Shown: positions 9,202 to 23,624 of the stretch, piece after piece
How positions within the stretch are numbered: position 1 is the stretch's first letter
Layout: the number at the start of each line of letters is the position of its first letter
Virus record (IMG/VR): IMGVR_UViG_2558860161_000008
Coordinates: 1 to 43,817 of that record
Direction: 5' to 3' (one strand)
Origin: a virus
Taxonomy: Duplodnaviria > Heunggongvirae > Uroviricota > Caudoviricetes
Length of the DNA: 43,817 nt
The notes under the pieces: model-generated
Databases searched by the model: none
The model's input: only the letters and a program-made list of their open reading frames with translations
What the model was told of the DNA's origin: nothing
Position numbers and translations under genes: made by a program

Positions 9202-9422
9202 TCCGGAATATTTTCAAACGATTTACCAATCAGACTTTCCGTTGTCCTCGCCCCGGTCAGTGGTACACCACGCCTGCAGGGCATGTTCTACGTGTTAGCC
9301 TGGTTGACCGTGAATGTCAGAAGGTGATTTGTGAACCGCTGGGCCGTAATTACCGCGTCAGTATGCCGCTTATAGCCTTTCGCTCCGGAAAAAACATGAA
9401 GCATCTCGGAGGTGCGGCATGA
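9198..9422 (+). CDS. Small hypothetical protein (74 aa)
   Basis: ORF coupled by overlapping stop/start to both flanking genes. Confidence 0.4.
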   Translation: MIRNIFKRFTNQTFRCPRPGQWYTTPAGHVLRVSLVDRECQKVICEPLGRNYRVSMPLIAFRSGKNMKHLGGAA

Positions 9423-10411
9423 GCCTGTTAATGACATCCCAGCCCATTGTGATAAATCGTGATCTTGCATGCCGTATTGGTCTGAATGAGGCAATTGTGT
9501 TGCAGCAGCTTCATTACTGGCTGAATGAAACGAATTCAGGCACTGAGCATGGCGGAATTCGCTGGGTTTATAACACGACAGAACAGTGGCTGGAGCAGTT
9601 TCCGTTCTGGTCAGAGTCCACTCTGAAACGCACATTTGCAAGCCTGAAATCACTTGGGGTTTTGCGTCGCGAGCAACTCAATAAATCGAAGCGTGACATG
9701 ACCAACTTCTACACGATCAACTATGAAAGTGAGCTTTTAGAAGAGGTCAAAGTGAACGAATCCATCAGGTCAAAATGCACTTCTCCATCGGGTCAAAGTG
9801 ACCTGATGGATGGGCGCAAAATGACACGATCCATTGGTTCAAAACGACACGCTGTCATCGGGTCAAAATGGCCCAATGATCTTACAGAGAATACAACAGA
9901 GATTACTACAGAGAATAAAACCTCTTCTCGTCCGGACGCTTCGCAACCGGACACGCAAACGGCTGAACAGGAGTTTTTAACTCGCCATCCTGATGCGGTT
10001 GTATTCAGCCCTAAAAAGCGCCAGTGGGGAACGCAGGATGATTTGACCTGCGCACAGTGGCTCTGGAAAAAAATCATCGCCCTGTACGAGCAGGCCGCCG
10101 AATGTGACGGCGAGGTGGTTCGTCCCAAAGAACCGAACTGGACAGCCTGGGCAAACGAAATTCGCCTGATGTGTGTGCAGGATGGTCGTACTCACAAACA
10201 AATCTGCGAGATGTACAGCCGCGTCAGCCGCGATCCGTTCTGGTGCCGTAACGTGCTCAGCCCGTCGAAGCTGCGGGAAAAATGGGATGAGCTTTCCCTG
10301 CGCTTATCGCCGTCCGTAAGTACGTACACCGAAAAACGCGAAGACCCGTACTTCAAATCCAGTTACGACAACGTGGACTACAGCCAGATCCCGGCAGGAT
10401 TCAGGGGGTGA
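9419..10411 (+). CDS. Replication initiator (lambda O-like N-terminal domain, DnaT-like C-terminal domain)
   Basis: 330 aa; iteron repeats embedded in the central linker-coding region as in lambda O; position after cro/cII-like genes. Confidence 0.6.
   Translation: MSLLMTSQPIVINRDLACRIGLNEAIVLQQLHYWLNETNSGTEHGGIRWVYNTTEQWLEQFPFWSESTLKRTFASLKSLGVLRREQLNKSKRDMTNFYTINYESELLEEVKVNESIRSKCTSPSGQSDLMDGRKMTRSIGSKRHAVIGSKWPNDLTENTTEITTENKTSSRPDASQPDTQTAEQEFLTRHPDAVVFSPKKRQWGTQDDLTCAQWLWKKIIALYEQAAECDGEVVRPKEPNWTAWANEIRLMCVQDGRTHKQICEMYSRVSRDPFWCRNVLSPSKLREKWDELSLRLSPSVSTYTEKREDPYFKSSYDNVDYSQIPAGFRG
9745..9930. repeat. Candidate replication origin: five RGGTCAAARTG iterons plus ACAGAGA repeats
   Basis: Iterons at 9745-9754, 9768-9777, 9791-9800, 9836-9846 (degenerate), 9861-9870; 11-bp inverted repeat 9762-9772 / 9799-9809; three ACAGAGA repeats in 9883-9925. 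Confidence 0.55.
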
Positions 10412-17589: not shown

Positions 17590-17616
17590 AAACAACCGCC
17601 TCCGGGCGGTTTTTTG
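17590..17616 (+). terminator. Rho-independent terminator
   Basis: CCGCC-tccg-GGCGG hairpin followed by TTTTTTGTTT. Confidence 0.5.
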
Positions 17617-17637
17617 TTTCTGCATGGGGAAGAAATT

Positions 17638-18276
17638 ATGGCTGCTCTTAAGAACCTTATTCAGCAGTTGAATCAAATGCAAAAGCAAATTCCATTTGCG
17701 ACAGCTCAGGCTATGACCAAAGTTGTACGCCAGATAGAGACGGCACAGAAAACAGCGTTTGAACGTCATCTGGAGAGCCCTACACCGTTTACTGTTAAAT
17801 CAGTTGGTTCGGTTGCTGCGAGAAAGAACAACCTGACCGCAAAGGTTTTTGTCCGTGATACTGCGGCTGGCTATCTGGAACCATTCGAGTTTGGTGGAGA
17901 GCACAAGCTCAATAGCCAGGCTCTTTTGAACCCCAAGAACGTCAAACTGAACAAATACGGCAACATGCCGCGCAATAAGCTCTCACAGCTTAAAGCAAAG
18001 GAAAATGTATTCGTAGGTGAGGTGGATGGCATTAACGCTGTCTGGCAGCGTAAGAAGCCGATGAAAGCTAAGAAGCGACGGGCCAAGCGCTCCGCTAATG
18101 GGACGCGAAGGCCGAAACGTAAACAGCGTTCTCCAAAGCTTTTGATCCGGTTTGGTGATGCGCTACCTGTGACTCCAGTGCTGGGGTATATGGATAGGGC
18201 CCGTACCATGGCGAACGCACTGCTACCGTCTGCTTTAAATCAGGCGATAGCAGAAGCCATCAGGACGGCAAAATAA
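17638..18276 (+). CDS. Hypothetical phage protein with a basic K/R-rich segment
   Basis: ATG at 17638 with GGGGAAG RBS; 212 aa; KKPMKAKKRRAKRSANGTRRPKRKQR stretch suggests nucleic-acid binding. Confidence 0.5.
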   Translation: MAALKNLIQQLNQMQKQIPFATAQAMTKVVRQIETAQKTAFERHLESPTPFTVKSVGSVAARKNNLTAKVFVRDTAAGYLEPFEFGGEHKLNSQALLNPKNVKLNKYGNMPRNKLSQLKAKENVFVGEVDGINAVWQRKKPMKAKKRRAKRSANGTRRPKRKQRSPKLLIRFGDALPVTPVLGYMDRARTMANALLPSALNQAIAEAIRTAK

Positions 18277-18286
18277 AAGCAGTAAC

Positions 18287-18790
18287 TTATAAGTTAATTT
18301 CGCAAGCTTTTATGAAGCTGTTTACTGCAGTTGTCGATCCAGAAACATTGGCTGACATGGAATGCTGGTTTCCGCCATCCTTTGTTTGCACACCAACTAA
18401 CACTTTGGATTTCGCCCCCTGAAGCTGCTTAAGCACTGTTTTTAGTTGGTCCGCGTCATCCGATTGAATCTGGAGGCTCTGAACATTACGTCTTGAAAGG
18501 GTAGCATCGAGCTTCACTGCGGTATTCCCGTCGACCTTCATTATCAGGTCCATTGGTACCTCTGATAGTGATTCGGTGCTTTTATCCATTTCAACGTATG
18601 CCGCCGATAGCTTTTCTTTAGTGCAGTCAAACACAATGGCGCCATTGTCGGATGAAACTTCGCCAAGCATCATTGCTTTCTTACCACCAGAGAAAAGGTC
18701 ATCTTCAGTATTAGTCACCCACTGGGCATGAGCAATTGGTGATGCCAGCACTGCGGCTACGAAAGTTATTTTGATTATATTGTTACCCAT
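18287..18790 (-). CDS. Secreted/periplasmic hypothetical protein (signal peptide), reverse-oriented moron
   Basis: ATG at 18788-18790 with AAGGAG RBS; N-terminal MGNNIIKITFVAAVLASPIAHA signal peptide; occupies the lambda bor-like position between lysis and packaging genes. Confidence 0.55.
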   Translation of the reverse strand: MGNNIIKITFVAAVLASPIAHAQWVTNTEDDLFSGGKKAMMLGEVSSDNGAIVFDCTKEKLSAAYVEMDKSTESLSEVPMDLIMKVDGNTAVKLDATLSRRNVQSLQIQSDDADQLKTVLKQLQGAKSKVLVGVQTKDGGNQHSMSANVSGSTTAVNSFIKACEINL

Positions 18791-18933
18791 TACATTCTCC
18801 TTGTATTGAATAGGAATAATCATAGTCGGAGCGAATGGTCGAAGCCATTAAAAAAATGGGTCCTTCCTGAGACTTTTGTAAGGTACGGGCATTGCGCGCC
18901 GCGGTGTTTTCCTAGCTACAACTTTCAGATTTG

Positions 18934-19081
18934 TGTCCCATGTCCCACCTCTGGCGATCATTACGGACACCTCGCCAGCTCTGGCTATTCCAGTTTATTC
19001 CAGTGGGACATTCTGGTGGGACATGGCAAAAATGTCCCAGGCGAATGTCCCACCCCAGAAAATGTCCCAGGTGATGTCCCA
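18934..19081. repeat. Array of 8 TGTCCCA/TGGGACA heptamer repeats (candidate terminase-binding cosB-like site)
   Basis: Copies at 18934, 18941, 19004 (rev), 19017 (rev), 19033, 19045, 19063, 19075; the last overlaps the small terminase start codon. Confidence 0.6.
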
Positions 19082-19650
19082 TGACCACGATGAACCAGAG
19101 TCAGTACGCACAACATTCAGGTGTGGATCGCAAAACAATTGGTCGGTGGATTAAAGCCGGGCGCTTCATTGTGATGGACGGAGACCTGATTGACGTAGAG
19201 GCCAGCGATGCGGCATTGAAGAAAAACCGCGATGGCAAAGACCCGCGCGCCTCGAACGCGAAGAAAAAGAAAACTCCCGTCGTTAGCGATAACGATGATG
19301 ACGGTGATGAAATCAATAAAACTGTCCGCCAGATAATGCTCACTGAAGGGGCAGATCTTTCGAGAGAGGAAGCGGGACGTATCCGCGAGAATTACATGGC
19401 CCTGCAGGCAAAGCTGCAGTATGAAAAAGACAGCGGCCAGCTTATTGAGCTGACAGCAGCCGAGGAGGTTTTATTCAACGCCTTTCGCCAACAGCGTGAT
19501 GCCTGGCTTAACTGGCCGTCCAGGGTGGCGCCGCTAATGGCTGCTGATCTGGATGTACCGGCGGACAGGATGACAGAGGTGCTGATTGAACATGTCCACA
19601 AACACATCTCAGTCCTCGGAGAGCCAGAGTTTAACCCGGCAGAAGATTGA
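19081..19650 (+). CDS. Terminase small subunit (Nu1-like)
   Basis: 189 aa; N-terminal HTH-like segment, acidic middle, position before the large terminase with overlapping ends. Confidence 0.7.
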   Translation: MTTMNQSQYAQHSGVDRKTIGRWIKAGRFIVMDGDLIDVEASDAALKKNRDGKDPRASNAKKKKTPVVSDNDDDGDEINKTVRQIMLTEGADLSREEAGRIRENYMALQAKLQYEKDSGQLIELTAAEEVLFNAFRQQRDAWLNWPSRVAPLMAADLDVPADRMTEVLIEHVHKHISVLGEPEFNPAED

Positions 19651-21715
19651 GCGTCTTGAATTAAGCGTCCGCAAAGGCTGGACACCCCCGCCGCGTATCA
19701 GTGTGCCGCAGTGGGCAGATGACTATCGTAAGCTGGCAAAAGAGGCTGGGAGCACTTCGGGAAACTGGGAAACATCGACGGTAGAAATTGCCCGCGGACC
19801 GATGCTTGCCGCGACGGAGTCCGGGGTTCATATCATCACTGTAATGTGCTGTACCCAGTTGATGAAGACAGCACTGCTGGAAAACCTTTTTGGCTATTTT
19901 GCCCACCTCGATCCTTGTCCGATACTGCTGCTGCAGCCGAAAGAAGAAGCCGCTGAACAGTTTTCGAAAGAGCGTATTAGCCCGCTGGTAAGGGTGACGC
20001 CGGTACTGCGTAAAATCATCGGTGATTCGAAACAGAAAAGCTCGAAAGAAACCATTCTTTACAAGGCGTTCACTGGCGGATTTCTGGCGCTGGCGGGTGC
20101 TGGTAGCCCTGATAACCTTGCGCGTCGTCCGATTCGTGTCCTGCTGGCGGATGAAGTGGACAAGTACCCGATAACCCGCGAAGGCGATCCAATTGCGCTG
20201 GCCGAAGAGCGTACAGCGACATTTGGCCTGACCTGGCTGTCTGTACGCGCCTGTTCGCCGACGGTGGAGGATGAGAGCCGCATTGCTGACAGCTACGCCG
20301 ACTCCGATCAGCGCCGGGCATCTGTGGTTTGCCCGCACTGTGGCCACCGCCAGTTCCCCGACTTTTTCAAACACGTTCAGTGGCCGAAAGAGGGAGATAA
20401 ACACCTGACTAAATCGGCGATGCTCTATTGCGAATGCTGTGGTAGTGGCTGGTCCGAAGGACAGCGCCTCAGAGCTCTGCAAACTATTCGATGGCATCAG
20501 ACGCGCCCATTTGAGTGCTGCGGGGAGCGGCACTCACCGCTGATGGATTATGACCTTGCCTGGCGGGCGGCAGACGAGGGCAGCGTTGAAAAGGTCTGGC
20601 AATGGTCAGAGTCGGAACGGCATGCGGTCTATCGCGCAATCTGCCCCTCCTGTGGAAAGGAGGCAGTCGATAACCACCACGCGGGGTACCAGGCATCCAA
20701 GCTTTTCAGCCCCTGGCAAAAAGATAAGCCGTCGGATATTGCGAAAAAATATATCGATGCGAAGGGCGATCCGGATAAGGAACAGGCGTGGTGGAATACC
20801 CAGATGGGGCTTCCGCACCGACCTAATCATGGGAAACAGCTCCCTGTTGATGTTCTGCTGGCGCGCCGGGAAATATTTCCGGCCGTCGTTCCGGACGGGG
20901 TGGCATTGTTAACAGCTGGAGTTGATACCCAGGACGATCGCTTCGAAATTACGATCACCGGCTGGGGGAGAGATGAAGAATCGTGGTCGGTCGCGCATGA
21001 CGTTATTTATGGTGACCTTGAGACGGAAGAACCCTGGAAGCGACTGGATGCATACCTGAAACAGATCTGGCGACGTGGTGACGGGCGCGGCCTGAATATC
21101 ATGGCAACGTGCATGGACTCCGGTGGCCACCATACGCAGAAGGTATACGAATTCGCCAAAGAGCGTCTTGGCCGTCGTGTCTGGGCAATTAAGGGGGAGT
21201 CTGCACAGGGAGGTAAACGCAATCCTGTCTGGCCGACCAAACGACCATCATCGAAAAGCAAAGCCAGTTTCCGCCCTGTCATTCTGGGGGTTAACTCAGC
21301 GAAAGACGTGATACGCGGTCGCCTGCATCTTGAGCCACCCAAACCTGGCGCCGCCGCTGCGGGTTATATGCATTTTCCTGACGATCGCGATCTCGGGTAC
21401 TTCAATCAGCTGCTGGCGGAGCGACTGGTTTACAAAGTCATTTCCGGGCAGCGGTACAGTATCTGGGAAGCAATACCAGGACGAGCTAACGAAGCGCTTG
21501 ACTGCCTCGTTTACAGCTATGCCGCGCTGTGCGGTCTCAAACATATGGGGTTAAAACTCAACGTCCGGGCCGCCAACCTCGAAGCCGATCCGGATAAGTT
21601 CCTGCCAGCGCCAGTTGGACAGGAAGAAAAAATCAATTACGAGCTGCCGGGTGCGGTTATTGAAGAACCAGCGCCGGTCAAACGTAAGCGAATATCGCAA
21701 CTCCTGCCGAAATAA
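19586..21715 (+). CDS. Terminase large subunit (lambda gpA-like)
   Basis: 709-aa ORF with lambda-A-like layout; overlaps the 3' end of the small subunit gene. Confidence 0.85.
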   Translation: MNMSTNTSQSSESQSLTRQKIERLELSVRKGWTPPPRISVPQWADDYRKLAKEAGSTSGNWETSTVEIARGPMLAATESGVHIITVMCCTQLMKTALLENLFGYFAHLDPCPILLLQPKEEAAEQFSKERISPLVRVTPVLRKIIGDSKQKSSKETILYKAFTGGFLALAGAGSPDNLARRPIRVLLADEVDKYPITREGDPIALAEERTATFGLTWLSVRACSPTVEDESRIADSYADSDQRRASVVCPHCGHRQFPDFFKHVQWPKEGDKHLTKSAMLYCECCGSGWSEGQRLRALQTIRWHQTRPFECCGERHSPLMDYDLAWRAADEGSVEKVWQWSESERHAVYRAICPSCGKEAVDNHHAGYQASKLFSPWQKDKPSDIAKKYIDAKGDPDKEQAWWNTQMGLPHRPNHGKQLPVDVLLARREIFPAVVPDGVALLTAGVDTQDDRFEITITGWGRDEESWSVAHDVIYGDLETEEPWKRLDAYLKQIWRRGDGRGLNIMATCMDSGGHHTQKVYEFAKERLGRRVWAIKGESAQGGKRNPVWPTKRPSSKSKASFRPVILGVNSAKDVIRGRLHLEPPKPGAAAAGYMHFPDDRDLGYFNQLLAERLVYKVISGQRYSIWEAIPGRANEALDCLVYSYAALCGLKHMGLKLNVRAANLEADPDKFLPAPVGQEEKINYELPGAVIEEPAPVKRKRISQLLPK

Positions 21716-21723
21716 GGAAAATC

Positions 21724-21987
21724 ATGTTCAACCGGAACACCAGCCTGCTTGCCGGCGCAATGACTGACGATCAGCTCAGGGATGCGCTTGCGAAAGCTCA
21801 GCAGGCGTACATTGATTTAGCAACCGGGAGCCACGGTGTTTCGTTTTCCTATACGCAGGGAGACGGGACGCGATCAGTGTCCTATCAGCAAAGCACCCTG
21901 GCTGATCTGCTGGCCCTGATTCAACTTCTGCAGGCGCAACTGGGGATTATCTCTCGTCCCCGGAAACCAGCGAGGTTTAGATTCTGA
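21724..21987 (+). CDS. Head-tail joining protein (gpW-like)
   Basis: 87-aa ORF between terminase and portal genes; resembles gpW family. Confidence 0.6.
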   Translation: MFNRNTSLLAGAMTDDQLRDALAKAQQAYIDLATGSHGVSFSYTQGDGTRSVSYQQSTLADLLALIQLLQAQLGIISRPRKPARFRF

Positions 21988-23624
21988 TGAATAAAGTACA
22001 GATACTGGGCTCTGATGGGCAGCCGTTGCGACAGCAGCGTCCCTCTATGCTGGTGGGGGGGAGCCGCGTACCTTATGACGCAGCTGACTCTTTCAGCGAT
22101 CAACTGGCGAACTGGCAACCCGCGCTGTGGTCCCCGGACAATGAAATTAACATTTACCGGGATCGCATCGTGTCCCGCGCACGCGATCTGGTCCGTAATG
22201 ACGGCTGGGCAAACGGTGCGGTCACACGTCTGCTGGATAATGCGGTTGGTGCCAACTTCCGCCCCATCATGAAACCCGATTACCGTGTTCTCAGAATGAT
22301 CACCGGAAACAAGGCGTTTGATGCGTCCTGGGCGGAAGAGTACGGAAAAGCACTGGACGGGCACTGGCGGACCTGGAGTAACGATCCTGGCCGGTATTGT
22401 GATGTTGAACGAAAACTCACCGTGTCGCAGATGTTACGCCTGGGATTTCGTCACAAGCTTATTGACGGGGATGCTCTGGCCATTCTCCAGTACAGAACTG
22501 ACAGGCTTGGTCCCGGAAGAGGGCGTTACGCCACCACGGTACAGATTGTCGATCCTGACCGCCTCAGTAATCCTCAGCAGAATTTCGATATGCCAAATGT
22601 CCGTGGTGGCGTTGAAATTGATGCGGACGGTGCGCCGGTTGCTTACCACATCAGGGAGGCCCATATCGGTGACTGGTGGAGCGGGGCTAAAACCATGACG
22701 TGGCAGCGTATCCCGCGTGAAACTGACTGGGGCCGCCCGCATGTGGTTCACGATTTTGATCATGAGCGTGGCGCGCAGCACCGTGGTAACGGCATCCTGA
22801 CTCCGGTTATTCAGCGTCTGAAAATGCTGGTGAAGTATGACCAGAGTGAGCTTGAGGCAGCAATTCTTAATGCCATATTTGCCGCTTACATTGAGTCACC
22901 CTATGACCCTGCGATGGTTCAGTCTGCCCTGGGCGAGACCTATGACGAGTCGGAGTTAGGCACTTATCAGGACGGGCGTGTTGAGTTCCATAACGATCGG
23001 CGTCTGACACTTCAGAATGGTGCCCGAATGCCCATTCTTTATCCTGGTGAGAAAATCACGACGGTTAACGCGGCGCGGCCCTACAGCAATTTTGAAGTCT
23101 TCGAATCTGCTGTTCTCCGTAATTTTTCTTCAGGAACAGGGTTGTCCCCACAGCAGGTCACCCAGGACTGGTCTGACGTTAACTACAGTTCTGCACGCTC
23201 CTCGTTGCTGGAGGCATGGAAAACACTGACTCGCCGCCGGGACGATTTTTCTACCGGCTTCGCTCAGCCCATTCTCACCGCCTTTGTTGAAGAAGTTCAC
23301 GACAATGAGGATTTACCCCTGCCCGCAGGCGCACCTGATTTTGTTGACGCCAGAGCCGCGTATTCTCGCGCGCGCTGGATGGGGCCAGGGCGCGGCTGGG
23401 TGGATCCGGTTGCAGAGAAAAAAGGCGCCATTCTTGGTCTGGATGCCGGACTTTCCACCCTCGAGATTGAGGTGGGTGAAAACGTCGGTGAAGACTGGGA
23501 AGAAGTGCTTGATCAGCGCCAGAGAGAAATTGAGTCATGTCTTAAACGCGGATTACCGCTTCCGAGCTGGGCACAGGCTGACCAGTTTGCGAGCCAGACC
23601 ATTACCGATCCGGAGGAAAAGTGA
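21987..23624 (+). CDS. Portal protein (lambda gpB-like)
   Basis: 545-aa ORF, ATGA-coupled to the W-like gene. Confidence 0.8.
   Translation: MNKVQILGSDGQPLRQQRPSMLVGGSRVPYDAADSFSDQLANWQPALWSPDNEINIYRDRIVSRARDLVRNDGWANGAVTRLLDNAVGANFRPIMKPDYRVLRMITGNKAFDASWAEEYGKALDGHWRTWSNDPGRYCDVERKLTVSQMLRLGFRHKLIDGDALAILQYRTDRLGPGRGRYATTVQIVDPDRLSNPQQNFDMPNVRGGVEIDADGAPVAYHIREAHIGDWWSGAKTMTWQRIPRETDWGRPHVVHDFDHERGAQHRGNGILTPVIQRLKMLVKYDQSELEAAILNAIFAAYIESPYDPAMVQSALGETYDESELGTYQDGRVEFHNDRRLTLQNGARMPILYPGEKITTVNAARPYSNFEVFESAVLRNFSSGTGLSPQQVTQDWSDVNYSSARSSLLEAWKTLTRRRDDFSTGFAQPILTAFVEEVHDNEDLPLPAGAPDFVDARAAYSRARWMGPGRGWVDPVAEKKGAILGLDAGLSTLEIEVGENVGEDWEEVLDQRQREIESCLKRGLPLPSWAQADQFASQTITDPEEK

Follow-up and report, generated by a model that had tools for sequence, protein, structure and literature searches.

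A TGTCCCA repeat array upstream of the small-terminase gene of an Escherichia coli prophage: a probable cosB-like packaging site

The 43,817-base stretch of DNA analysed here (IMG/VR virus record IMGVR_UViG_2558860161_000008, positions 1 to 43,817; hereafter the window) reads as an Escherichia coli prophage with a lambda-like head module. Directly upstream of the gene for its small terminase subunit TerS lies an array of eight copies of the heptamer TGTCCCA, preceded by sequences resembling the cohesive-end site (cos) of phage lambda. The original prediction for this array, made from the sequence alone, was a cosB-like set of binding sites for the small terminase or, alternatively, an autoregulatory operator. 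The region contains the following features, where R3, I1, R2 and R1 are elements of lambda cosB and offsets are counted from the initial nucleotide in the predicted cohesive end GCATTGCGCGCC.

18858-18864, + strand: cosQ-like heptamer GGGTCCT, candidate packaging-termination signal, identical to the lambda heptamer
18889-18900, + strand: predicted cosN cohesive-end sequence GCATTGCGCGCC, a 12-nt 5' overhang by identity with the end of Serratia phage BZS1
18901-18933, + strand: block between cosN and the array, CGCGGTGTTTTCCTAGCTACAACTTTCAGATTTG, with a conserved CTAGCTAnnAAnTTTTnAnnTTTG pattern
18934-18947, + strand: abutting heptamer doublet TGTCCCATGTCCCA, R3-equivalent, +46 to +59
18948-19003, no strand: variable 56-bp spacer at the lambda I1 position, holding a pair of ATTCCAGT repeats and a GATC at 18956-18959
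19004-19023, - strand: inverted heptamer pair, 13 bp apart, R2-equivalent, +116 to +135
19033-19052, + strand: direct heptamer pair, 13 bp apart, R1-equivalent, +145 to +164
19063-19081, + strand: second direct heptamer pair, 12 bp apart, flanking a Shine-Dalgarno-like AGGTGA, the last copy overlapping the terS ATG
19081-19650, + strand: terS, 189 aa, matching phrog_57 'terminase small subunit' (E 4.6e-36)
19586-21715, + strand: terL (large terminase subunit), 709 aa, lambda gpA-type, matching Pfam GpA_ATPase (2.2e-64) and GpA_nuclease (2.1e-78)

Exact motif positions bear out the predicted six direct and two inverted heptamers at 18934-19081: on the + strand, TGTCCCA starts at 18934, 18941, 19033, 19046, 19063 and 19075, while the two - strand copies start at 19004 and 19017. 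As had been described, the final copy (19075-19081) runs into the ATG of the 189-aa terS open reading frame (ORF), which starts at 19081. Elsewhere in the window the heptamer occurs only at 28878 (-) and 38894 (+). Shuffling of the whole window gives an expectation of 5.82 copies, or 0.0197 per 148 bp, and a Poisson probability of 5e-19 for eight or more copies within 148 bp; the array is the densest 7-mer cluster of the whole window. Related loci, more than 250 in total, were collected by a scan of one genome per species (31 loci) and by two pattern scans of IMG/VR (about 120 loci each), and are identified below by L numbers where needed. In 120 copies from relatives, the heptamer core extends to an 8-mer, (A/G)TGTCCCA.

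The start-to-start distances of the eight copies are 7, 63, 13, 16, 13, 17 and 12. The 7-18 bp spacing originally given thus holds inside the sub-clusters and fails across the 56-bp spacer, which sets the abutting doublet apart from the other six copies. The pair of ATTCCAGT repeats noted among the heptamers is present, at 18987-18994 and 18997-19004; it is not a separate motif, being the flank of a 13-bp unit, ATTCYRGTGGGAC, around the inverted heptamers. The first ATTCCAGT looks like a relic of a third inverted unit, and three inverted copies are present in the relatives L014 and L018. A reading of the pair as the site of a second protein was rejected on account of this flanking position and of its absence from the Yersinia, Hafnia and Ewingella variants.

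The sequences upstream of the array follow the lambda order. In lambda, GGGTCCT is followed after 23 nt by the cohesive end GGGCGGCGACCT and then by CGCGGGTTTTCGC; in the window it is followed after 24 nt by the 12-mer, and the sequence reads ...CGCGGTGTTTTCC. We take the lambda heptamer to be cosQ; its sequence was not found in the literature examined. GGGTCCT is kept in nearly all related loci, and homology among mosaic prophages starts exactly at this heptamer. The predicted cohesive end is identical to the 12-nt 5' overhang of Serratia phage vB_SspM_BZS1, mapped by PhageTerm on virion reads together with PCR and sequence comparison (PMC7556043) and entered as feature cosL, 1-12, in the BZS1 record. 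It is conserved in the E. coli variants, in the genome loci and in 98 of 113 IMG/VR loci. The CTAGCTAnnAAnTTTTnAnnTTTG pattern of the following block is kept across genera and across both of the heptamer classes described below; the block (18901-18933) probably either belongs to the region in which TerL nicks or serves as a spacer of fixed length. Contigs or stored pieces of the IMG/VR loci L193, L220, L044, L115 and L059 start or end within a few nucleotides of GCATTGCGCGCC; some come from contigs of about 44-45 kb, and not all are confirmed as true contig ends. This is soft evidence that assemblies may break at physical cos ends.

The cosB of lambda consists of R3, I1, R2 (inverted relative to R3 and R1) and R1, a pattern that marks a 'complex' cosB (PMC4669245, PMC9026076). 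R3 lies at about 50-65, the inverted R2 at 106-120, R1 at 155-169 and the Nu1 ATG at 191 (PMC9026076; also the lambda sequence), to be compared with the offsets listed above and with a terS ATG at +193 from the cohesive-end start. Lambda cos and the complex cosB of 21, phi80, Gifsy-1 and Monarch are the closest known systems. Shared with lambda are the identical cosQ heptamer, whose distance to the predicted nick site is almost unchanged, a gpA-type TerL, a putative cosB that fills the approximately 190 bp from cosN to the terS ATG, and the orientation +, spacer, -, +; the cohesive end is predicted to be a 12-nt 5' overhang, as in lambda. The heptamer itself is unrelated to the lambda R sites, as the original prediction had stated and as comparison with the lambda sequence showed to be correct.

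Conservation was measured in an alignment of six E. coli variants that are about 84% identical across the region. Substitutions amount to 1.4% in heptamer columns and 29.8% in spacer columns inside the array, compared with 9.2% in the block from cosQ to the array and 13.9% in the first 59 nt of terS; the division into invariant and variable columns differs between heptamers and spacers with a Fisher P of 2e-6. In another set of E. coli genomes, homology gives out at about 18932, a single base short of the array. The commonest orientation string among 82 distinct IMG/VR arrays is ++--++++. The doublet is unchanged across all TGTCCCA-class loci except for one point mutation, and a heptamer lies 4 to 9 nt upstream of the terS ATG in most relatives of both classes.

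Within the fast-evolving spacer, the GATC (Dam site) at 18956-18959 is invariant in the E. coli, Kluyvera, Raoultella and Salmonella variants and missing from the Yersinia-type variants. In Ewingella, Rahnella, Yersinia and Hafnia variants (L014, L016, L017, L018), the spacer starts, directly after the doublet and at roughly the lambda I1 position, with a conserved 16-bp palindrome, GTGCATATTTATGCAC, which the E. coli group lacks and which may be the site of another bending protein or of an accessory protein. The spacer is AT-rich in Xenorhabdus and Providencia relatives.

A search for the motif in related phages had been suggested with the original prediction. TGTCCCA arrays occur in many related prophage loci, and sequence searches found none in 50,697 deposited phage records. 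The TGTCCCA loci belong to Escherichia, Kluyvera, Citrobacter, Raoultella, Salmonella, Ewingella, Rahnella, Yersinia and Hafnia, and their TerS proteins are 65-100% identical. Other relatives, including BZS1 and Citrobacter phage phiNP, carry a second heptamer, GGTAACA, which agrees with TGTCCCA at positions 2, 3, 6 and 7 (nGTnnCA) and in a purine at -1. The heptamer class covaries with the helix-turn-helix of TerS. All TGTCCCA loci with an identifiable helix-turn-helix have V[D/N]RKT..RW.K.G (113 of 114 IMG/VR loci identifiable, plus 16 genome loci), and all such GGTAACA loci have VSRKT..W-K.RGW (108 of 111 IMG/VR loci identifiable), with zero mixed loci.

Arrays of the GGTAACA class come in two layouts. 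The complex layout (e.g. L019-L023, L281 and L283) is that of the window, with, counted from the ATG, a doublet at about -147/-140, an inverted pair at about -70/-58, the same position as the inverted pair of the window, and three to four direct copies up to the ATG. The simple layout, found in BZS1, phiNP and many others, consists of a doublet and one ATG-adjacent copy. In most loci of this class, the doublet equivalent follows the TTTG block. Like the window, BZS1 and phiNP have the 12-nt cohesive-end sequence, cosQ, a CTAGCTA...TTTG block, an abutting doublet and an ATG-adjacent copy, and their terminases are homologous to those of the window (TerS about 30% identical overall and about 50% in the N-terminal domain; TerL 48%). 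They differ from it in the heptamer, in having a simple site of three copies with the ATG at +75, and in the C-terminal domain of TerS. The repeats are unannotated in the GenBank records of both phages, and cosB does not come up in a text search of the BZS1 paper (PMC7556043).

Mosaic terminases allow the heptamer to be assigned to one part of the protein. Some TerS homologues pair a BZS1-like N-terminus with a window-like C-terminus. In L019 and L020, identity to the window reaches 92-94% for TerL and 82% for the C-terminal part of TerS, compared with only 52% for the N-terminal domain, and both loci carry 6-8 GGTAACA copies in the architecture of the window. In BZS1-type loci, the first 400 residues of TerL are only about 37% identical to the window, while the N-terminal domain and the heptamer are those of L019 and L020. 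Because L019 and L020 combine GGTAACA with a window-like TerL and C-terminal part and a different N-terminal domain, the heptamer follows the N-terminal domain of TerS, and neither its C-terminal domain nor TerL.

The most confined exchange is found in E. coli 20KM2222 (L283, NZ_CP151050.1 2861797-2863690), which is 98.7% identical to the window over 17953-18932 and 86% identical from 19435 onwards. The replaced block, 18933-19434, comprises exactly the array and TerS residues 1-118, with no other gene. L283 shares its upstream genes, cosQ and cosN with the window and carries a seven-copy GGTAACA array and a VSRKT-type TerS N-terminus, which would amount to a natural swap of a packaging-specificity cassette within one species. 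Laboratory lambda/21 and lambda/N15 hybrids were used to define cosB/TerS specificity (PMC4669245), and L283 is their natural counterpart; as in the lambda/21 hybrids, specificity would lie in an exchangeable module of cosB and the TerS N-terminus. The exchange bears on the possibility that the repeats bind a different protein, such as a host nucleoid protein or another phage factor, and covary with TerS through physical linkage only. Linkage between adjacent sequences is unavoidable, and binding of TerS to the heptamers is itself deduced from sequence. However, the block swapped between near-isogenic prophages codes for TerS residues 1-118 alone, a host factor cannot explain two exclusive codes within E. 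coli, and the association holds without exception across Enterobacterales, Pseudomonas and Burkholderiales loci. We consider a different binding protein unlikely.

Two single loci extend these observations. In L195 (IMG/VR UViG_2563366756_000003), the 49 nt that precede the GGTAACA doublet contain another end sequence, GGGGCGGGAGCG..., which resembles lambda more closely than GCATTGCGCGCC does and is situated at a contig end; a cosB code can apparently combine with a different cosN. In L026 (Paraburkholderia fungorum), a doublet GGTAAAAGGTAAAA lies about 30 nt upstream of terS, whose helix reads VSPKT instead of VSRKT, and this single locus may represent a third pairing of heptamer and helix.

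TerS is labelled a hypothetical protein in RefSeq. AlphaFold2, run with a 21-sequence alignment, predicts an N-terminal strand-helix-helix-wing-helix domain (predicted local distance difference test about 80), in which a winged helix-turn-helix spans residues ~1-50 and is followed by a disordered linker (~52-75) and long helices; the helical C-terminal part is the predicted oligomerisation and TerL-binding part. In a Foldseek search of the PDB with the N-terminal domain, the MerR-like winged-helix proteins mycobacteriophage Xis and BldC came out on top (4j2n, 6ama), without significant E-values; the DNA-binding domain of lambda gpNu1 (1j9i) ranked fourth (target-normalised template modelling score 0.50, E 1.0), followed by a chain of 6hn7, from a study of packaging in phage-inducible chromosomal islands (PICIs), and by RacA. 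These matches are consistent with, but do not prove, a winged helix-turn-helix resembling Xis, BldC and gpNu1. Proteins of the Xis/BldC type multimerise head to tail on arrays of short direct repeats, which they occupy cooperatively, a mode that would suit copies 12-13 bp apart; they differ from TerS in acting in recombination or transcription, untethered to a terminase oligomer. By BLASTP, residues 4-34 of TerS align with residues 3-33 of lambda Nu1 (E 0.043 over 31 residues). Nu1 residues 20 and 24 discriminate between lambda and 21 (PMC4669245); they would correspond to G21 and K25 of the window TerS, within the segment that distinguishes the heptamer classes. A PDB sequence search with TerS returned only spurious low-complexity matches, e.g. 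RecA fusion constructs.

A TGTCCCA array also occurs apart from any terminase gene. Locus L284, 14001-14300 (E. coli 2015C-4136CT1, NZ_CP027550.1 ~1657800-1658120), contains GGGTCCT, a cosN-like GCATTGCGCGAG and an array of seven exact TGTCCCA copies and two CGTCCCA variants. The surrounding island is at least 14 kb long, adjoins thiM and encodes primase, Icd-like, SSB, ProQ/FinO and PerC proteins, and no terS, terL, rpp-like or other plausible ORF was found after the array. A phage satellite with a direct copy of the helper cosB is one possible identity of the island, a prophage remnant another. In Gram-negative PICIs, the satellite has cosQ and cosN without terminase genes or helper-type R repeats, and TerS is redirected via Rpp (PMC9026076). 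The thiM-adjacent island resembles PICIs in having cosQ and a cosN-like sequence without terminase genes, and differs from them in its helper-type TGTCCCA repeats and in lacking an rpp-like ORF after cos.

This island also bears on the operator alternative of the original prediction, by which TerS or another regulator would act through the heptamers to control transcription of terS and the late operon. The last copies do flank the Shine-Dalgarno-like AGGTGA and overlap the ATG, and regulation of transcription is a frequent role of winged-helix proteins of the Xis, BldC and MerR kinds. The array, together with cosQ and cosN, nevertheless occurs in the island without terS, which argues against a terS operator, since a packaging signal can exist without terS and a terS operator should not. 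Furthermore, no sigma-70-like promoter or intrinsic terminator was found on either strand of 18200-19300, the region lies inside the lambdoid late transcription unit, downstream of the lysis genes, and the conserved distance runs to cosN and not to a promoter. The operator alternative is not supported, and we regard it as very improbable.

A role of the inverted copies in a hairpin was also weighed, in which an RNA or DNA structure at 19003-19053 would act, for instance, in attenuation, in translational control or by cruciform formation, and not through protein binding. The direct pair at 19033-19052 and the segment 19003-19024 do make up an imperfect palindrome of 22 nt, folding of 18925-19095 as RNA gives a z-score of -2.5, and 56% of the spacer positions are pairable across 34 arrays. 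This excess pairing is, however, as expected from the conserved flanks of the 13-bp unit, which makes the complementarity test uninformative; six of the eight copies are direct and unneeded by a hairpin, simple BZS1-type sites have no inverted copy at all, and an Rfam scan gave one chance-level miRNA match only, with no terminator-like site. A hairpin function is highly improbable on this evidence. The same holds with still greater force for replication-origin iterons, to which we assign next to no probability: short repeats in both orientations would fit, but the lambdoid iteron set lies elsewhere (five GGTCAAA(A/G)TG at ~9740-9870 in an O-like ORF), and the array adjoins no replication gene and is tied to cosN and terS in every relative. 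A pac site of the P1 type, with Dam-regulated hexamer clusters and headful packaging, was rejected, as the heptamers lack GATC, the spacer has a single GATC and the relatives have defined cohesive ends.

The position relative to cosQ and cosN, the lambda-like layout, the footprint of conserved heptamers and the covariation with the TerS N-terminal domain all support the cosB-like reading of the original prediction. We conclude that the array very probably serves recognition by the small terminase, as the cosB part of a cohesive-end site of the lambda type (cosQ 18858-18864, cosN 18889-18900, cosB 18934-19081). For the binding of TerS and its stoichiometry, the bending of the DNA and the precise sites of nicking in this prophage, we infer the following scheme. 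The N-terminal winged helix-turn-helix of TerS would recognise each (A/G)TGTCCCA, and several TerS DNA-binding domains would fill three groups of sites: the doublet near cosN (R3), the inverted pair (R2), and the direct copies (R1 and the extra pair). Bending or looping of the variable 56-bp spacer would let the + and - sites meet. Bound TerS would then anchor the gpA-type TerL, which is predicted to nick cosN; staggered nicks approximately 45 bp upstream would leave the 12-nt 5' ends GCATTGCGCGCC. The terminase would stay on the cosB-bearing end and dock on the portal, with packaging proceeding rightwards via terS and terL to the next cosQ/cosN.

Several points weigh against this interpretation. 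No match to the consensus of integration host factor (IHF), WATCAANNNNTTR, was found in 18800-19100 with up to one mismatch, in a test of the consensus only, so that intrinsic bending or a non-consensus site is possible. With the heptamers of the doublet abutting at 7 bp, it is difficult to see how two helix-turn-helix domains could be bound on a single face of the DNA. In BZS1, the overhang lies 1 nt farther from cosQ than the lambda spacing predicts. TerS matches no Pfam family at E up to 0.01, including the Nu1-type models, and all Foldseek E-values for its N-terminal domain are at least 0.49 and not significant. The nearest sequenced phages, BZS1 and phiNP, have a TerL of only 48% identity and belong to the GGTAACA class. 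Finally, the argument rests on the replacement of all 7-8 copies within a conserved architecture.

While it would work like lambda cosB, the array is not a plain member of that type, because of its eight short paired sites, the extra pair on the ribosome-binding site and ATG, the lack of an IHF consensus, a TerS outside Pfam Nu1 and the 1-nt offset of the overhang. Each R position of the window is a pair of 7-8-bp repeats, giving eight sites, unlike the three single ~16-bp elements of lambda. Further differences from lambda are the unrelated motif and the marginal pairwise similarity of TerS to Nu1. A parallel exists in the simple cosB of N15 and the complex cosB of Monarch, which share one specificity (PMC4669245). 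Similarly, the GGTAACA class has a short form (a doublet at the R3 position and one ATG-adjacent copy, giving three copies in BZS1 and phiNP) and a long form of 6-9 copies; the repeat unit and sequence differ from those of N15 and Monarch, and the accessory rR2 of N15 lies inside terS.

A more specific model can be offered tentatively, as a possibility that we ourselves hold to be doubtful. In this model, the regularly spaced heptamers mark an assembly mode that departs from the dimer-plus-IHF hairpin of lambda: a TerS oligomer contacts as many as eight short sites independently of IHF, and cosB is thereby wrapped or looped; a few recognition-helix residues re-specify the compact 7-bp code at positions 1, 4 and 5 (TGTCCCA versus GGTAACA); and the resulting orthogonal packaging identities are exchanged by prophages as a 500-bp cassette and copied directly by satellites, which would hijack their helpers with no Rpp-like adaptor.

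TGTCCCA appears to represent a previously undescribed packaging specificity, with GGTAACA as its sister code, the repeats having been found in no literature searched. Full-text searches for the doublet sequences and the 12-mer returned only the BZS1 paper and irrelevant primer matches. Megablast of 18800-19700 against the 50,697 phage records found nothing, and distant blastn against phages found only the cosQ-cosN part of phiNP, with no deposited phage carrying a TGTCCCA array. The choice of viral DNA by the small terminase is understood in molecular detail for very few phages. The kind of element described here is well known, and the system is unusually clean for dissecting TerS-DNA recognition. 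The lineage is legible, with a short exact repeat unit and two exclusive codes in an otherwise conserved cos/terminase background; natural chimeras bound the specificity module to approximately 500 bp, and one code has both complex and simple sites. The rules of TerS-DNA recognition, the site stoichiometry and the independence from IHF thus become directly testable. In addition, the 189-aa 'hypothetical protein' of a widespread group of Enterobacterales prophages is flagged as TerS, the virion ends are predicted, and a candidate satellite with the same packaging signal is identified.

Downstream of the array, the terS and terL ORFs overlap and are followed by gpW (Pfam), and then by the following feature.

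21987-23624: portal-position ORF, 545 aa, whose counterpart in E. coli MLI104K1 is labelled phage portal protein in RefSeq

The near-identical prophage of E. coli MLI104K1 that corresponds to the window has a contractile tail. The window is mosaic, with only 17637-38259, a segment that runs from the final gene ahead of cos across the head and tail genes, being ~99% identical to the MLI104K1 prophage; the early and lysis regions differ. Related cos regions are found in 63 of 5,426 complete E. coli genomes, and related loci also in more than 119 IMG/VR contigs.

On the other side of cos, a 220-aa ORF at 17614-18276 (+; phrog_1924 'minor tail protein') has conserved counterparts immediately upstream of cosQ in BZS1 (p72), phiNP (029) and many loci, a position that marks it as the last gene of the linear genome. 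Some variants only have, between this ORF and cosQ, a minus-strand 178-aa ORF with a hydrophobic N-terminus (18287-18823 in the window; phrog_19473), which resembles a moron situated where lambda has bor. Elsewhere in the window, a 330-aa ORF (9419-10411) contains, at 9740-9870, five repeats similar to GGTCAAA(A/G)TG, of which one is degenerate (GGTTCAAAACG), and this segment looks like a lambdoid replication origin with iterons inside an O-like initiator gene.

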